From Acinetobacter wanghuae (GTDB lineage Bacteria; Pseudomonadota; Gammaproteobacteria; Pseudomonadales; Moraxellaceae), in the NCBI RefSeq assembly GCF_009557235.1, contig NZ_CP045650.1, positions 480,001-512,000 on the forward strand: a stretch of DNA of 32,000 bases, given 5' to 3'. This document shows positions 17,515-24,801 of this stretch, piece by piece. The position numbers and the translations under genes were made by a program. A model generated the notes under the pieces. It worked only from the letters and a program-made list of their open reading frames with translations, did not search any database and was not told the origin of the DNA. Numbering within the stretch: the stretch's first letter is position 1; each line of letters begins with the position of its first letter.

Positions 17515-17847
17515 TTAAACGGCAGGCGTCGTAGTTTCAGCAGGTGCCGCTTGTTCCGATTCAGCGGGCTGTGGTGTGCTTTGTTGAACAGGGACTTGCT
17601 GTGGTGTATTTGATTCATACGCGGGTTGTTCTGCTGTACGTGGCAGCGTTGGTGCCGAATTTTTCCAACCATAGGTTTCAACTTTGGCTTTTTTCTTTGC
17701 AGAAGCAGGTGGCGGTGTCTTGGTGTAATGCGTCGTGCCTTTGGAATCGACCCATTTATAATAGTCGGTGGCGAAACTTGTACTACTCACTGACCTTAAA
17801 AGCACAGCACAGCTTAACCCGAAGCAAGAAGATAATAATTTTGGCAT
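17515..17847 (-). CDS. DUF4124-domain secreted protein with a Pro/Gln-rich tail
   Basis: 110 aa. It has a signal peptide, then YKWVDSKGTTHYTKTPPP (the DUF4124 signature as I recall it), then a low-complexity P/Q/A/E tail. Confidence 0.7.
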   Translation of the reverse strand: MPKLLSSCFGLSCAVLLRSVSSTSFATDYYKWVDSKGTTHYTKTPPPASAKKKAKVETYGWKNSAPTLPRTAEQPAYESNTPQQVPVQQSTPQPAESEQAAPAETTTPAV

Positions 17848-18216
17848 GACCCTGAATCCTCATTATTTTAATGATCATATAACCCATATTGTATTTAAAT
17901 TTGACGCATGCCAGTGCAATGTTTATCTGTTTTTTTGTGACGTTGAGCGGATTGATCTTCAAAATCATTCCGCATTGAACACAATTTTAAAATTCCACTT
18001 TTGAGATGCTGATATCGCCCTATATTCATTTATAAAAAATCATTCATTTTTTTTATATAAAACATATTAAAAATTTATAAAATAAAAATGTTAAACATAT
18101 GAAAAATAAATATTTATTACTATTTTGAAATGAAGGTTTTAAGAGGGTAAATCATAGATTGGATGGAAATGCAGCAGATCTATACTTTTTTTCTTGAAAT
18201 TGCTTGTTTTTTAAAC

Positions 18217-18245
18217 TTGACATTAATGGCTGAACACACAAGAAT
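18217..18245 (+). promoter_or_regulatory. Candidate sigma70 promoter for ilvIH-ilvC
   Basis: Consensus -35 TTGACA (18217-18222), a 17-nt spacer, then -10-like AAGAAT (18240-18245). It lies about 285 nt upstream of the ilvI start. This rests on sequence pattern only. Confidence 0.3.
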
Positions 18246-18528
18246 GCTGCAATAGTTTTATATGCCTTATCTCGATCACCCTTCGAATAAGTGACATTTC
18301 ATGCAATGGGCGATTTCTCTAGCCGAGAGATTGAACAAAGCGACCAAAATGTGTTTATCCCAACATGTTTTAGATCTTGTATTGCTCGAACAGCAGAGAG
18401 ATCAGATTTTTTTCCTATTGCTTTGAAAACTATGAAATTTATGTGCTATAACAGTGCATAGAGTTAACAAATGAAACACGGCAAATGCCTCCCATTTGTG
18501 CAGTGAAATAATATTAGGGTGAATCACG

Positions 18529-20813: not shown

Positions 20814-21866
<1,053 letters not shown>

Positions 21867-21884
21867 GTTCTAATTTCTAAATCG

Positions 21885-21914
21885 AAAAGCCCTTGTTTTT
21901 ACAAGGGCTTTTTT
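21885..21914 (+). terminator. Rho-independent terminator after ilvC
   Basis: aaaagcccttgt-tttt-acaagggctttttt: a 12-bp stem plus a T-run, 18 nt after the ilvC stop. Confidence 0.85.
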
Positions 21915-21970
21915 ATGACTTATAAAAACTGACTTATGTGATGTGATCTGCGAGTTGAACTTCGTGCCTC

Positions 21971-22001
21971 AAATAGATGAAAGCAGTGCTTTCATCTATT
22001 T
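21971..22001. other. Perfect 14-bp stem / 3-nt loop hairpin of unknown role
   Basis: aaatagatgaaagc-agt-gctttcatctattt. There is no clear U-tract after it on either strand. It ends 5 nt before the ilvC 3' relic. Confidence 0.6.
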
Positions 22002-22006
22002 TCGTA

Positions 22007-22051
22007 CCTTGGATTCAAGCAAATAAAATCGTTGATAAAGAAAAGAACTAA
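22007..22051 (+). pseudogene. Relic second copy of the last 14 codons plus stop of ilvC
   Basis: cct tgg att caa gca aat aaa atc gtt gat aaa gaa aag aac taa encodes [14 protein letters not shown], identical to the ilvC C-terminus (21822-21866). 40/45 nt are identical, and all 5 differences are synonymous third positions. Homology stops upstream of 22007. Confidence 0.85.
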
Positions 22052-22080
22052 TTTTCTTATCTAGCTGATTTTTATGCTAT

Positions 22081-22109
22081 AAAAAACCCTGCGTAAGCGG
22101 GGTTTTTTT
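22081..22109. terminator. Terminator-like hairpin following the ilvC relic
   Basis: aaaaaa-ccctgc-gtaa-gcgggg-ttttttt. The T-run ends at 22109, directly abutting the ATG of the next ORF at 22110. Confidence 0.7.
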
Positions 22110-22961
22110 ATGGATCAGATTAAACAAAAAGAAAAAGCATTAAGAAAAAGGGAAAGAGCATTTGACCATGTCTATTACATAGTATTGGGTATAGTGGCGA
22201 CGGTTGTTAGTTTTTACACATATTATTTTCATGATTATTATATTTCTTTAGATCCAAACGATTGGGGTGTCTTTGGGGACTTCTTAGGTGGTACGTTAAA
22301 TCCGCTTTTGGCATTTTTTAGTTTTATGCTTTTATTATTAAATCTTAAACTTCAGCGTGAACAATTGGATAATGCTGAAGAACAGTTGAAATTGAATCGT
22401 GAGGAATTAGCTGAGACAAGGAAAGCTTTAGAAAGATCAGCTCAGGCTCAAGAGGATTCAAAAAGAGTTATGGATGAGCAGTTAAGAACTCAGACTTTTC
22501 AACAAAGTGATAATTTGTTTTCGGTTATGTTTAAGCAAATCTTAGATTGTCAGATTGAGGTTGTTAAAGAATGTAATCGCCGTAAGTACTATTCAGATGG
22601 AAATCTAGATAGGCTGAGAAATGAAATAAATAAAAGAATAATTTTCAAAAAATATTTTAGATTGTTATTTCAAACATTTTCTATGTTGGAAGATATCCTT
22701 GGGTTAGAAAATACAGAAAAGTTAAAACAATATATAAAAGTTATTAGGAGTCAGCAGGAAGATGTAGTTCTGGAATTTCTGTTTATTTATATATCTGAAA
22801 ATAGGGAAAAACCATCGCACTTTCATACCTATTTAAGAATGAGTAATTTTTTCAAACATTTAAAATTAGAATTTAGAACACTTGAGTTTAAGGAAGTGTT
22901 GAAGGCATATGATGATTTTAATTTCACAGATAAAGATGAGTACTTTAAGAAAGTTGGTTAA
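22110..22961 (+). CDS. Membrane protein resembling the putative phage abortive-infection family putAbiC (candidate defence gene)
   Basis: 283 aa. Two hydrophobic helices (HVYYIVLGIVATVVSFYTYYF and LNPLLAFFSFMLLLLNL) bracket WGVFGDFLGGTLNP. A charged coiled-coil-like stretch QREQLDNAEEQLKLNREELAETRKALERSAQAQED follows. The C-terminal region has YIKVIRSQQEDVVLEFLFIYISENREKPSHFHTYLRMSNFFKHL. These motifs match my memory of the Pfam putAbiC profile (G-DFFGG-LNP ... Q-EL; Y-ILRSQLS--EL-LLFYN). The ORF is clearly more AT-rich than its neighbours and has no recognisable SD. Confidence 0.6.
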   Translation: MDQIKQKEKALRKRERAFDHVYYIVLGIVATVVSFYTYYFHDYYISLDPNDWGVFGDFLGGTLNPLLAFFSFMLLLLNLKLQREQLDNAEEQLKLNREELAETRKALERSAQAQEDSKRVMDEQLRTQTFQQSDNLFSVMFKQILDCQIEVVKECNRRKYYSDGNLDRLRNEINKRIIFKKYFRLLFQTFSMLEDILGLENTEKLKQYIKVIRSQQEDVVLEFLFIYISENREKPSHFHTYLRMSNFFKHLKLEFRTLEFKEVLKAYDDFNFTDKDEYFKKVG

Positions 22962-23035
22962 TGATAATGTGTTGTTCAAACTGTCAAAAATAAAGTTGTG
23001 CTAAAATCCCACCTTATTTTTACTTCTCCCAAAAA

Positions 23036-23830
23036 ATGAGGCATAGCGTGAAAGCTCATGTTTTATTGGGCGCGCTCGCGCTCAGCATTTCTACAATCTC
23101 TTCTGCTCAAAACACCACATCAAACGACACATTACAGCCACTCAAAAATGTCAAAGTTTCGATGCAACGTATGCTGAAAAGCAGCGATGGTCGTTATTTT
23201 TTAGATCTGTATGCGGGGATTCCTGCACCAAACGCACATTTGACCGATACACAGCAAAAGCAAAAAATTGACTTTAAAGGGCTGCAAAAGTGGCAGCAAC
23301 TCACACTACGTTCCTATGCTGTGAATGACAAAGCAGTGGCAAGTACAGAGTACGCCTTAGATGGTAATTTAAATATTATCAGTAGCCAGTTTTCAGCGCA
23401 GTTGAACGGTAAAGGCACAAATAAAAAAATCCAATTCGGACCTGCATTTAAAGCAGTAGATAAACCTGCATTACAGTTTAATTTCTTTGGTGATAAAACC
23501 TTAAAACGCGTAGATGTGATTAACAAAGCCAATGGCAAAGTGATGCAAATCCTGAAAGGGTTTAGTGCATTTCCAAATACGATTGGCTACTTAGATATTA
23601 ACTTTGATGGTTATTACGATGTAGTACTGTCAAATTTAGATGGTCATAAAGTGGAAGATCAACGCTTTATCTATTGGGTGTATAACCCAAGTACACGTCA
23701 ATTCCAACGCTCGCCACAAATGGAAAAAATCGTTGGTTTCCCAAAACTCGATGCGCAGAAAAAACAAATTCATTATGACGATAAAGTTGTTTATCAAGTT
23801 AAAGATGGGCTTTTAACTTTGGTGAATTAA
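23036..23830 (+). CDS. Secreted protein of unknown function (signal peptide; DxNxDG-type loop near the C-terminus)
   Basis: 264 aa. The signal peptide is KAHVLLGALALSISTISSAQ. The C-terminal part has YLDINFDGYYDVVLSN and FIYWVYNPSTRQFQRSP. The alternative start GTG 23048 has a better SD (GAGG, 6 nt upstream). Composition is host-like. Confidence 0.6.
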   Translation: MRHSVKAHVLLGALALSISTISSAQNTTSNDTLQPLKNVKVSMQRMLKSSDGRYFLDLYAGIPAPNAHLTDTQQKQKIDFKGLQKWQQLTLRSYAVNDKAVASTEYALDGNLNIISSQFSAQLNGKGTNKKIQFGPAFKAVDKPALQFNFFGDKTLKRVDVINKANGKVMQILKGFSAFPNTIGYLDINFDGYYDVVLSNLDGHKVEDQRFIYWVYNPSTRQFQRSPQMEKIVGFPKLDAQKKQIHYDDKVVYQVKDGLLTLVN

Positions 23831-24057
23831 GTGCGTTTAAAGATGTAGTCAAAGCGACAGGGAGGTCTGCTTTAGGGTCTTAAAATCTTGTAAAAATTAC
23901 ATTATTTATGTCTGATGAAGTTTGAAAGAGACGGGCGTAAAAATCAGAAAAAGCTTTTTTTTGGATAGAATATAAGGTGCATCACGCTCGAATCGCTCGC
24001 AGATTTTTAAAAATTTGTTAAAGTACAGCATCGAAGCACATCGCATAAGGAATAGAC

Positions 24058-24258
24058 ATGGGTTTACGTTGGACAGATACACTTGATATCGCCATTGAAC
24101 TATACGAAGCACACCCAGATGTTGACCCGCAATGGGTACGTTTTACCGATTTACATGCATGGGTATGTGCGCTTGAAAACTTCAGTGATGATCCGACAAA
24201 ATCGACTGAAGGCTTGTTAGAAGGCATTCAAATGGCATGGATTGATGAAGCGCGTTAA
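24058..24258 (+). CDS. iscX: Fe-S cluster assembly protein IscX (YfhJ)
   Basis: 66 aa. MGLRWTDTLDIAIELYEAHPDVDPQWVRFTDLHAWVCALENFSDDP matches the IscX family almost motif for motif. It has an AAGGAA SD, and ndk follows as in Pseudomonas. Confidence 0.9.
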   Translation: MGLRWTDTLDIAIELYEAHPDVDPQWVRFTDLHAWVCALENFSDDPTKSTEGLLEGIQMAWIDEAR

Positions 24259-24320
24259 TCGCTATATCGAAAAAATGCATTTTTTTACAGAGTAAAAGCA
24301 GAAAATAAGCCATTATTCGG

Positions 24321-24326
24321 TATAAT
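24321..24326 (+). promoter_or_regulatory. Candidate -10 element for ndk
   Basis: Perfect TATAAT lies 44 nt upstream of the ndk ATG, but the -35 region is poor (gcagaa). A strong SD AAGGAG is at 24358-24363. Confidence 0.35.
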
Positions 24327-24369
24327 GCGGCAAAATTTTCATGTCAACAATTGACTTAAGGAGCCTATC

Positions 24370-24801
24370 ATGGCTATCGAACGTACTTTATCTATCGTAA
24401 AACCAGACGCAGTTGCTAAAAACCACATCGGTGACATCTTTGCTCGTTTTGAGAAAGCTGGTCTTAAAATCGTTGCAACTAAAATGAAACACTTGACTCA
24501 AGCTGAAGCTGAAGGCTTCTACGCTGAGCACAAAGAACGTGGTTTCTTTGCTGACCTCGTTGCATTCATGACTTCTGGTCCAGTTGTTGTTTCAGTTCTT
24601 GAAGGCGAAAACGCTGTTCTTGCTCACCGTGACATCCTTGGCGCGACAAACCCTAAAGAAGCTGCTCCTGGTACAATCCGTGCAGATTTCGCTGTAAGCA
24701 TCGACGAAAACGCTGCTCACGGTTCTGACTCTGTAGCATCAGCTGATCGTGAAGTTAACTACTTCTTCGCTCAAACTGAGATTGCTCCACGTACTCGTTA
24801 A
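24370..24801 (+). CDS. ndk: Nucleoside-diphosphate kinase
   Basis: 143 aa. [15 protein letters not shown]...[14 protein letters not shown]...TIRADFA...NAAHGSDS, with the catalytic His in NAAHGSD. Confidence 0.97.

Follow-up and report, generated by a model that had tools for sequence, protein, structure and literature searches.

The Acinetobacter wanghuae gene described here probably encodes a single-gene antiphage protein of the AbiC/AbiP group that occupies a hypervariable, one-gene slot behind the ilvC terminator, a reading to which we assign a probability of roughly 0.6. The gene lies at positions 22110..22961 (+) of a 32,000-nt stretch of the chromosome (NZ_CP045650.1, positions 480,001 to 512,000; hereafter the window), which is identical to contig WITK01000001.1 of GCA_009601085.1. 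Its open reading frame (ORF) starts with ATG, is intact, encodes 283 amino acids (aa) and is full-length relative to its homologues. The gene belongs to the putAbiC family, shares the architecture of that family, deviates from its surroundings in base composition, and is replaced ORF-exactly between near-identical flanks. The G+C content is 0.302 (0.41, 0.24 and 0.26 at the three codon positions; 0.261 at the third), against 0.430 for ilvC, 0.454 for ndk, 0.387 for the neighbouring 264-aa ORF and 0.420 for the whole window. A first-pass annotation made from the letters had placed the 283-aa ORF between ilvC and iscX and estimated by eye that it was about one-third G+C and more AT-rich than these three genes; both the location and the contrast agree with our measurements. 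In a windowed comparison, the gene (30.2% against 42.0%) is the minimum of all 852-bp stretches, and stretches equally AT-rich make up 0.26% of the window, every one of them overlapping the gene. The composition is clearly foreign-looking.

The product matches the Pfam family PF16872 (putAbiC), whose accession had been given correctly in the first-pass annotation, with 27.6 bits against a gathering score of 22 (E = 4.1e-6); the alleles of two related loci, L005 and L013, score 33.1 and 34.7 bits. The expected match is thus significant, but it is not full-length: residues 178–254 (22641..22871, +) align with positions 5–78 of an 80-position model that describes a C-terminal block of ~77 of the 283 residues. 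This aligned part contains the block Y-I-K-V-I-R-S-Q..L-E-F-L-F..F-F-K-H. The G-DFFGG-LNP motif, which had been named as part of the putAbiC layout, is near-invariant in full-length members but lies outside the Pfam model, at the start of the second transmembrane (TM) helix, and the family name itself is a prediction. Searches against PHROGs gave a full-length match to phrog_8999 (residues 25–279 to profile positions 13–268 of 270, E = 2.5e-18); phrog_33781 and phrog_9267 matched at the N-terminus, and none of the three families has an assigned function. A scan of the gene product against NCBIfam returned a chance coiled-coil match and nothing relevant.

The family is large and diverse. A word-indexed search retrieved 36 relatives, the best of which are 85, 68, 64 and 51% identical to the window protein. 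A profile built from 15 members (alignment A1) and searched against 1.84 billion cluster representatives matched 15,343 clusters at E ≤ 1e-3, 7,108 at E ≤ 1e-10 and 401 at E ≤ 1e-30, so that the two-TM branch comprises more than 15,000 clusters of 50% identity. Relatives of ~400 aa, considered at one point as matches to the N-terminal half alone, proved in the profile search to be homologous over the full length and to carry an extra C-terminal part. Shewanella and Leptospira phages, as well as plasmids, encode weak relatives. Relatives in RefSeq plasmid records already bear the name "putative phage abortive infection protein"; the assignment is sound but unsurprising. A literature search under putAbiC or PF16872 found no paper, and publications on the Abi_C/AbiJ HEPN domain (PF14355; e.g. 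SadR and Taranis), which surface under "AbiC", were discarded as concerning an unrelated domain.

Conservation was assessed in 159 sequences, namely the window protein and 158 retrieved homologues of 240–450 aa, most of them profile-search representatives. Conservation is highest at G56 and G61 (100%), D57, G60 and P65 (99%) and N64 (96%), and L63 and G53 are also high. All of them belong to the motif G-D-x-x-G-G-x-L-N-P (residues 53–65), which starts TM2 and is invariant in the 15-member A1 alignment. A second tier, at 91–97%, comprises Q82, E99, L100, Q124, Q131, F137 and Y208, and T103 of the stalk is also conserved. The membrane motif, rather than the domain modelled by Pfam, is the invariant feature of the two-TM branch, and by its sequence conservation it is the hallmark and best-conserved element of the family. 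Within the same alignment, the cytoplasmic domain shows no catalytic-type constellation of conserved His, Cys, Asp, Glu or Lys residues. As a separate observation, hypothetical proteins from small E. coli, Salmonella and Klebsiella plasmids match in the TM2 motif region alone (approximately residues 47–90 of the relative P0035, 44–48% identity), and the membrane motif may also be joined to other C-terminal parts.

Two hydrophobic segments are present, with Kyte–Doolittle peaks at residues 17–35 and 59–77. The N-terminal tail is basic (isoelectric point, pI, 10), as first described; the loop at residues 41–61 is acidic and free of Lys and Arg, and the regions after TM2 are charge-rich. By the positive-inside rule, both the N- and C-terminal ends are likely to be cytoplasmic. 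TM1 spans residues ~21–40 (22170..22229, +), where a hydropathy peak coincides with a helix in the AlphaFold2 model. The motif W52-G53-x-F-G56-D57-x-x-G60-G61-x-L63-N64-P65 runs into TM2, which extends to about residue 81 (22263..22352, +). The two helices had been described as bracketing the motif; the two segments stand, whereas the bracketing does not, as WGVFGDFLGGTLNP forms the beginning of TM2. An acidic helical stalk (pI 4.7) follows at residues 82–140 (22353..22529, +). It carries a leucine at every seventh position (L86, L93, L100 and L107, then M121), which bears out the heptad-like charged segment of the first-pass annotation but not a textbook coiled coil: because the second core position is weak, the predicted stalk is better termed leucine-zipper-like. 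The remaining residues, 141–283, form a predicted all-α, basic domain (pI 9.0) that encloses the PF16872 block. AlphaFold2, run with a 15-sequence alignment, gave a mean predicted local distance difference test (pLDDT) score of 81, with a helix at residues 2–40, a loop at 41–48, a continuous helix at 49–158 (pLDDT 80–96) and a helical bundle at 166–244. Residues 120–283 modelled alone reached a pLDDT of 90.6 and a predicted template modelling score of 0.86. Neither model had a significant fold match in PDB or BFVD, and a PDB sequence search with the family profile was without a match.

The second line of evidence comes from the locus. We took contigs encoding an identical IscX as close relatives of the window, and among them the ilvC–iscX interval exists in four states: that of the window, a 273-aa putAbiC allele accompanied by a sensor kinase (L005–L011), a 276-aa DUF2971 protein (L004), and a broken DUF2971 gene (L003). 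Compared with L005, the window has 98.5% identity in IlvC, 96.6% in the 264-aa neighbour and 100% in IscX, while its tenant is 50.2% identical. This divergence is unevenly distributed: the N-terminal tail, TM1 and the loop (residues 41–52) are 17–30% identical and residues 141–180 are 28% identical, against 76% in the stalk (residues 96–140) and 73% in the PF16872 domain. The blastn break-points against L003 and L004 lie at 22076 and 22123 on the left and at 22984 on the right, which indicates that exactly one ORF has been exchanged; overall, the left break falls at about 22116–22123. The survey of the gap thus reveals variable content, either a 50% allele or DUF2971, between flanks that are 97–100% identical.

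Other lineages hold further family members at the same position. P0003 (282 aa, 64% identical) starts 58 bp past the ilvC stop codon, P0010 (283 aa, 47% identical) stands directly 3′ of ilvC, and P0021 (394 aa) lies in the order ilvC, family gene, 264-aa-like gene, GT4 glycosyltransferase, PAP2 phosphatase, iscX and ndk; P0004 is a further, divergent allele. At least five divergent alleles therefore follow ilvC across lineages, with 25–30% G+C throughout against 43–44% for ilvC. In contrast, tblastn with the 15 A1 members detected none of the family in the 6 kb upstream of iscX in any of 80 Acinetobacter/Moraxellaceae species representatives, about 11 of whose loci include the ilvC 3′ end. In those loci the slot contains DUF2971 (L045), a remnant with insertion-sequence-like ORFs (L035), an unrelated 319-aa ORF (L038), or nothing. 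Accordingly, the gene is neither core nor a one-off insertion; the AbiC/P family is a recurrent, fast-turnover tenant of the post-ilvC slot in one clade. Foreign composition and a variable slot agree with the horizontally acquired islet proposed from the sequence, but a long-standing hypervariable slot fits better than an acquired islet, given that the post-ilvC position holds five or more divergent family alleles in different lineages.

The alternative tenant is itself of the antiphage type. DUF2971 is the domain of Aristaios, a validated single-gene lactococcal antiphage system (PMC11381338), and the DUF2971 tenant matches the PADLOC candidate PDC-S31 (E = 1e-25). It resembles the window gene in being a single-gene, AT-rich, antiphage-type tenant at the identical position (L003, L004 and L045), and differs from it in encoding an unrelated protein with a predicted ADP-ribosyltransferase fold. 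As a co-tenant it informs the nature of the slot and not the action of the window protein. In one Acinetobacter clade, then, the family behaves as a hypervariable tenant, sharing its one-gene slot with a gene of the Aristaios type. The alleles form, in a naturally transformable genus, a compact natural series of at least five members with the same flanks, differing mainly in the N-terminal tail, TM1, the loop and residues 141–180, and could serve to map specificity determinants.

AbiC has been known since 1992 and AbiP since 2004; to our knowledge, all experiments on them were made in Lactococcus, and neither has a mechanism or a solved fold. The connection of the window protein to AbiP runs through its homologues. 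P0025, P0027, P0030 and P0035, which share full-length identities of 24–28% with the window protein (phmmer E = 5.7e-17 for P0025), match the PADLOC AbiP model at E = 2e-7 to 4e-9, from position 24/25 to positions 182–207 of 223. The matched span is the entire extramembrane part, and the TM region of the homologues is left unaligned. An hhalign comparison of the sequences after TM2 between the Acinetobacter clade and the AbiP-positive clade gave 96.3% probability (E = 1.6e-9, 151 columns). From these sequence relationships we infer that the window protein belongs to an AbiC/P group, a grouping justified by the superimposition of the AbiC and AbiP extramembrane domains over 93 residues at 0.91 Å (PMC13064643). 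According to that 2026 review, AbiC has two TM helices and AbiP one, AbiP binds RNA more strongly than single-stranded DNA (ssDNA) with its TM helix being essential, AbiP disturbs the phage transcription switch, and AbiC lowers the production of the major capsid protein (PMC13064643). Phages escaping AbiP are mutated in the major tail protein, which triggers AbiP-dependent toxicity (PMC12184496). Our null PDB and BFVD fold searches agree with PMC13064643. With AbiP, the window protein shares the single-gene format, an N-terminal membrane anchor (predicted here) and a helical extramembrane domain, and it differs in having two TM helices and the G-D-x-x-G-G-x-L-N-P motif where AbiP has one TM helix. 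With AbiC, the namesake of the Pfam family, it shares two TM helices followed by an extramembrane domain, a likeness drawn from the description of the layout (PMC13064643).

Other family members lie behind a different housekeeping operon or in prophages. The genes of the AbiP-positive relatives P0025 (L098, 10001–10942), P0035 (L101, 10001–10849) and P0030 (L169, 8001–8921) stand alone directly after nrdAB in another lineage, and those of P0025 and P0035 have 22% G+C against 33% for nrdB. The pattern is the same as that behind ilvC, a hypervariable tenant following a housekeeping operon. Relatives are also encoded on viral contigs of IMG/VR (n = 60), for example in L120, directly after the genes for a tail fibre and its assembly protein, and they are accessory genes in prophages. 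Prophage members of phrog_8999 follow tail-fibre or head genes in the manner of accessory genes; the window copy differs in being chromosomal, with no prophage around it and housekeeping genes in the rest of the window. In a prophage-like IMG/VR contig (L108, 5866–8469), genes for portal, minor head and neck proteins are followed by two tandem paralogues of 428 and 390 aa, both assigned to phrog_8999.

Taken together, the Abi-type antiphage call finds support in a PF16872 match above the gathering score, an atypical composition and a variable slot; an Abi family model does match, and the gene is not core. Several points weigh against this reading. PADLOC, a check on the defence call, gave no family for the window protein even at E ≤ 1 (PADLOC-DB v2), so that the protein itself, in distinction to its homologues, does not match the AbiP model, and no PADLOC model bearing the name AbiC matched any family member. 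The link to AbiP is therefore transitive. The PDB and BFVD searches recognised no known catalytic or nucleic-acid-binding fold. In Lactococcus, a protein described as "AbiC-like" (38% identity to AbiC) failed to protect against the phages of the panel used, and we know of no phenotype data for Gram-negative members of the family. In large contigs, members stand alone beside housekeeping operons (ilvBNC, nrdAB) and not in multi-system defence islands. The window gene lies 74 bp upstream of an envelope-type gene and is co-directional with it, and its start codon is preceded neither by a canonical Shine–Dalgarno sequence nor by a promoter in the consensus scan. What emerges is not a new kind of system; a mechanistically dark known family gains a member in Acinetobacter.

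A working model can be outlined by analogy with lactococcal AbiP and AbiC. The N-terminal tail would be cytoplasmic, TM1 would lead outward to a short, variable periplasmic loop, and the invariant motif would re-enter the membrane as TM2, placing the acidic leucine-repeat stalk and the basic all-α PF16872 domain in the cytoplasm. The protein may be harmless at rest, until a late phage protein, which for AbiP is the major tail protein, engages the cytoplasmic domain; the activated protein would then halt phage development at the cost of the infected cell. As to the effector, we tentatively favour the TM hairpin, which might oligomerise via the stalk and perturb the membrane, since conservation across the family peaks at the membrane motif; the hairpin might alternatively be a passive anchor. 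Any expression is probably low, arising from read-through of the terminator or from a terminator-overlapping TGnTATAAA element. Homologous recombination within the conserved flanks is the most likely route by which new alleles would arrive. Among the possible modes of action, we rank the membrane hairpin first, AbiP-like nucleic-acid binding second and superinfection exclusion third.

In the AbiP-like mode, which we consider somewhat unlikely, the phage-activated basic cytoplasmic domain would bind RNA or ssDNA and block the early-to-late switch or late protein synthesis, with the hairpin anchoring or localising the protein. The preference of AbiP for RNA over ssDNA, its effect on the transcription switch and the lowered capsid protein under AbiC (PMC13064643) are consistent with such an action, as are the pI of 9.0 of the C-terminal domain and the homology to the AbiP model, which falls in the extramembrane domain. 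However, one would not expect a mere anchor to show the highest conservation in a family of 15,000 clusters (G56, D57, G60, G61 and P65 at 99–100%), the AbiP model does not align with the TM region of the homologues, and the PDB and BFVD searches detected no known nucleic-acid-binding fold.

Superinfection exclusion, which appears improbable, would consist of a Sie- or Imm-like block of phage DNA entry at the inner membrane, with specificity set by the N-terminal tail, TM1 and the periplasmic loop. Small size, two TM segments, the frequency of relatives among prophage accessory genes and the strong divergence of precisely these segments (17–30% against 73–76% in the stalk and PF16872 domain) would suit it; however, the cytoplasmic region 141–180 is equally variable (28%), AbiC and AbiP act after DNA entry, with a late structural protein as the AbiP trigger, and the large conserved cytoplasmic domain would be left without a role. 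A non-defence origin, as a fast-evolving or decaying accessory membrane protein (for instance one with an envelope role alongside the neighbouring secreted protein, GT4 and PAP2, or a prophage remnant kept by chance), has little probability in our view: the envelope-type neighbours, the merely putative "putAbiC" label, the lack of a direct PADLOC call and the tenure of the same position by family members in several lineages would fit it, but the ORF is intact and of full length, it is exchanged ORF-exactly for an unrelated DUF2971 gene, no family member was found around iscX in the 80 species while the near-universal GT4 and PAP2 are missing from the window, and the homologues match AbiP and occupy prophage accessory positions.

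The most unusual aspect of the locus is found outside the ORF, in a conserved left module and in tandem units of a palindrome and a pseudo-ilvC end that recur across species. Behind ilvC, a first terminator-like hairpin with a T-run occupies 21885..21912 (+; 12-nt arms, 100% complementary, 4-nt loop), although the terminator scan listed no site there. Directly past this T-run lies a five-codon ATG...TGA remnant (21915–21932, +), probably a stump left by a previous occupant of the slot; a related stump is present in L004. The sequence GGGCTTTTTTATG at this point parallels the junction at 22100–22112. An AT-rich perfect palindrome (21971..22001; 15-nt arms, 100% complementary) precedes a pseudo-copy of the last 48 nt of ilvC (22007..22054, +), which is 88% identical to 21822–21869 and begins the left module. 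The recombination scar that the first-pass annotation had seen just before the gene is this repeat. The pseudo-copy aligns with the true ilvC end of L012 and L013, where the family gene follows ilvC directly. Next comes the candidate extended −10-like element TGCTATAAA (22075..22083, +), read from the sequence; it is conserved across the window and L004, L005, L012 and L164, and L038 has it as TGTTATAAA. It overlaps a second hairpin (22081..22108, +), detected by inverted-repeat search and RNAfold, whose T-run abuts the ATG; the hairpin reads AAAAAACCCTGC-GTAA-GCGGGGTTTTTT and the upstream run TAGCTGATTTTTATGCTATAAAAAaCCCTGCGnAAGCGGGGTTTTTTT-ATG. The left module is near-identical in the window, L004, L005, L012 and L164, whatever gene follows.

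Consensus scans listed neither a promoter nor a terminator at the 5′ region of the gene, and the sole Shine–Dalgarno-like sequence, TAAGCGGGG (22094–22102), falls in the loop and 3′ arm of the second hairpin. RNAfold predicts −22.5 kcal/mol for 22052–22125, and the hairpin is lost when the RNA starts at ~22090. It is conceivable that a transcript starting ~7 nt past TGCTATAAA would free TAAGCGGGG as a weak ribosome-binding site. Genes of the nrdAB-linked clade have ordinary AGGA-type Shine–Dalgarno sites, and the terminator-abutting start codon is therefore specific to Acinetobacter and not a family trait. An Rfam scan of 21500–24400 gave sub-threshold, terminator-driven matches alone.

Pseudo-copies of the last 45 nt of ilvC past the real stop codon were found in the window (21822–22054) and, across several Acinetobacter species, in L003/L004 (three copies), L005–L011, L035, L038, L041, L045, L046, L093 (three copies in a 170-bp tandem) and L167. 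In most cases an AT-rich palindrome (core AAAGCAnTGCTTT) and TCGTA stand before the extra copy, and in several so does GTTACGTGCC, itself ilvC sequence. Each pseudo-copy resembles the ilvC 3′ end with ~7 nt exchanged for a ~35-nt hairpin, and different units join the copy at the same position. In L003 (3983–4290), the module with the terminator and −10-like element is deleted between two TTTTTATG repeats and DUF2971 is split into 71 and 201 aa; this gene is a decaying tenant of the slot. The repeats could be a recombination footprint or an att-like site. Their identification as pdif (XerC/D) or integron attC/GTTRRRY sites was dropped, because a by-eye comparison gave a poor fit and no integrase lies nearby. 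The conserved left module before several different genes, the ORF-exact swaps and the tandem palindrome-plus-pseudo-ilvC units raise the prospect, which we regard as remote, of a dedicated single-gene exchange site in place of a random islet. Were the units traces of a specific recombination process, antiphage genes (AbiC/P alleles and Aristaios-like DUF2971 genes) would be shuffled behind an essential operon without an integrase, and the terminator would keep their expression low.

The flanking genes are conserved. The left flank, ilvC (20850..21866, +; 338-aa ORF), encodes ketol-acid reductoisomerase, with Pfam KARI_N and KARI_C on record for the identical locus L001; it is preceded by ilvB and ilvN, and IlvC of the window is 96.7–98.8% identical to that of L004, L005 and L012. 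The variable segment ends at ~22984 (blastn) and is followed by a gene for a 264-aa signal-peptide protein (23036–23830, +) whose XAC2610-related domain scores 47.6 bits with NCBIfam NF047539 (cut-off 35); the protein is 96.6–97.7% identical in L004 and L005 and 32–51% identical in other species. XAC2610 confers immunity to a type IV secretion effector of Xanthomonas, and the neighbour could therefore be an orphan immunity-type protein. The right-hand anchor is iscX (24058..24258, +; Pfam Fe-S_assembly, E = 3.5e-32), whose product is 100% identical in L003–L011, followed by ndk and rlmN. IscX and Ndk of the window have their nearest matches in Acinetobacter species. Of the remaining window ORFs, those scanned or on record are all housekeeping genes, encoding TatD, FabI, SecB, RsgA, an RNase T-family exonuclease, ThiF, a MacAB-TolC-type efflux set, LeuS, LptE and HolA. 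No mobile-element or phage gene is among them, with no integrase search or tRNA scan having been made.

The interval between the 264-aa gene and iscX varies as well. A GT4 glycosyltransferase gene (~427 aa) precedes iscX in 77 of the 80 species representatives and a PAP2 phosphatase gene (~183 aa) in 79, and both are absent from the window (23831–24057) and from L003–L011; the gap between the 264-aa gene and iscX is 227 bp. This looks like a lineage-specific loss of a near-universal pair. The contigs with the 273-aa allele (L005–L011) carry here a gene for a 632-aa 7TMR-DISM and HATPase_c sensor kinase (e.g. L005, 3154–5052), which had been considered as a defence ATPase and was rejected as such on this domain content; its insertion marks a second variable point of the ilvC–iscX interval. 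Finally, the region 5′ of ilvB (17800–18400) is very AT-rich (G+C 0.275–0.29) and is possibly an ilv leader or regulatory region.

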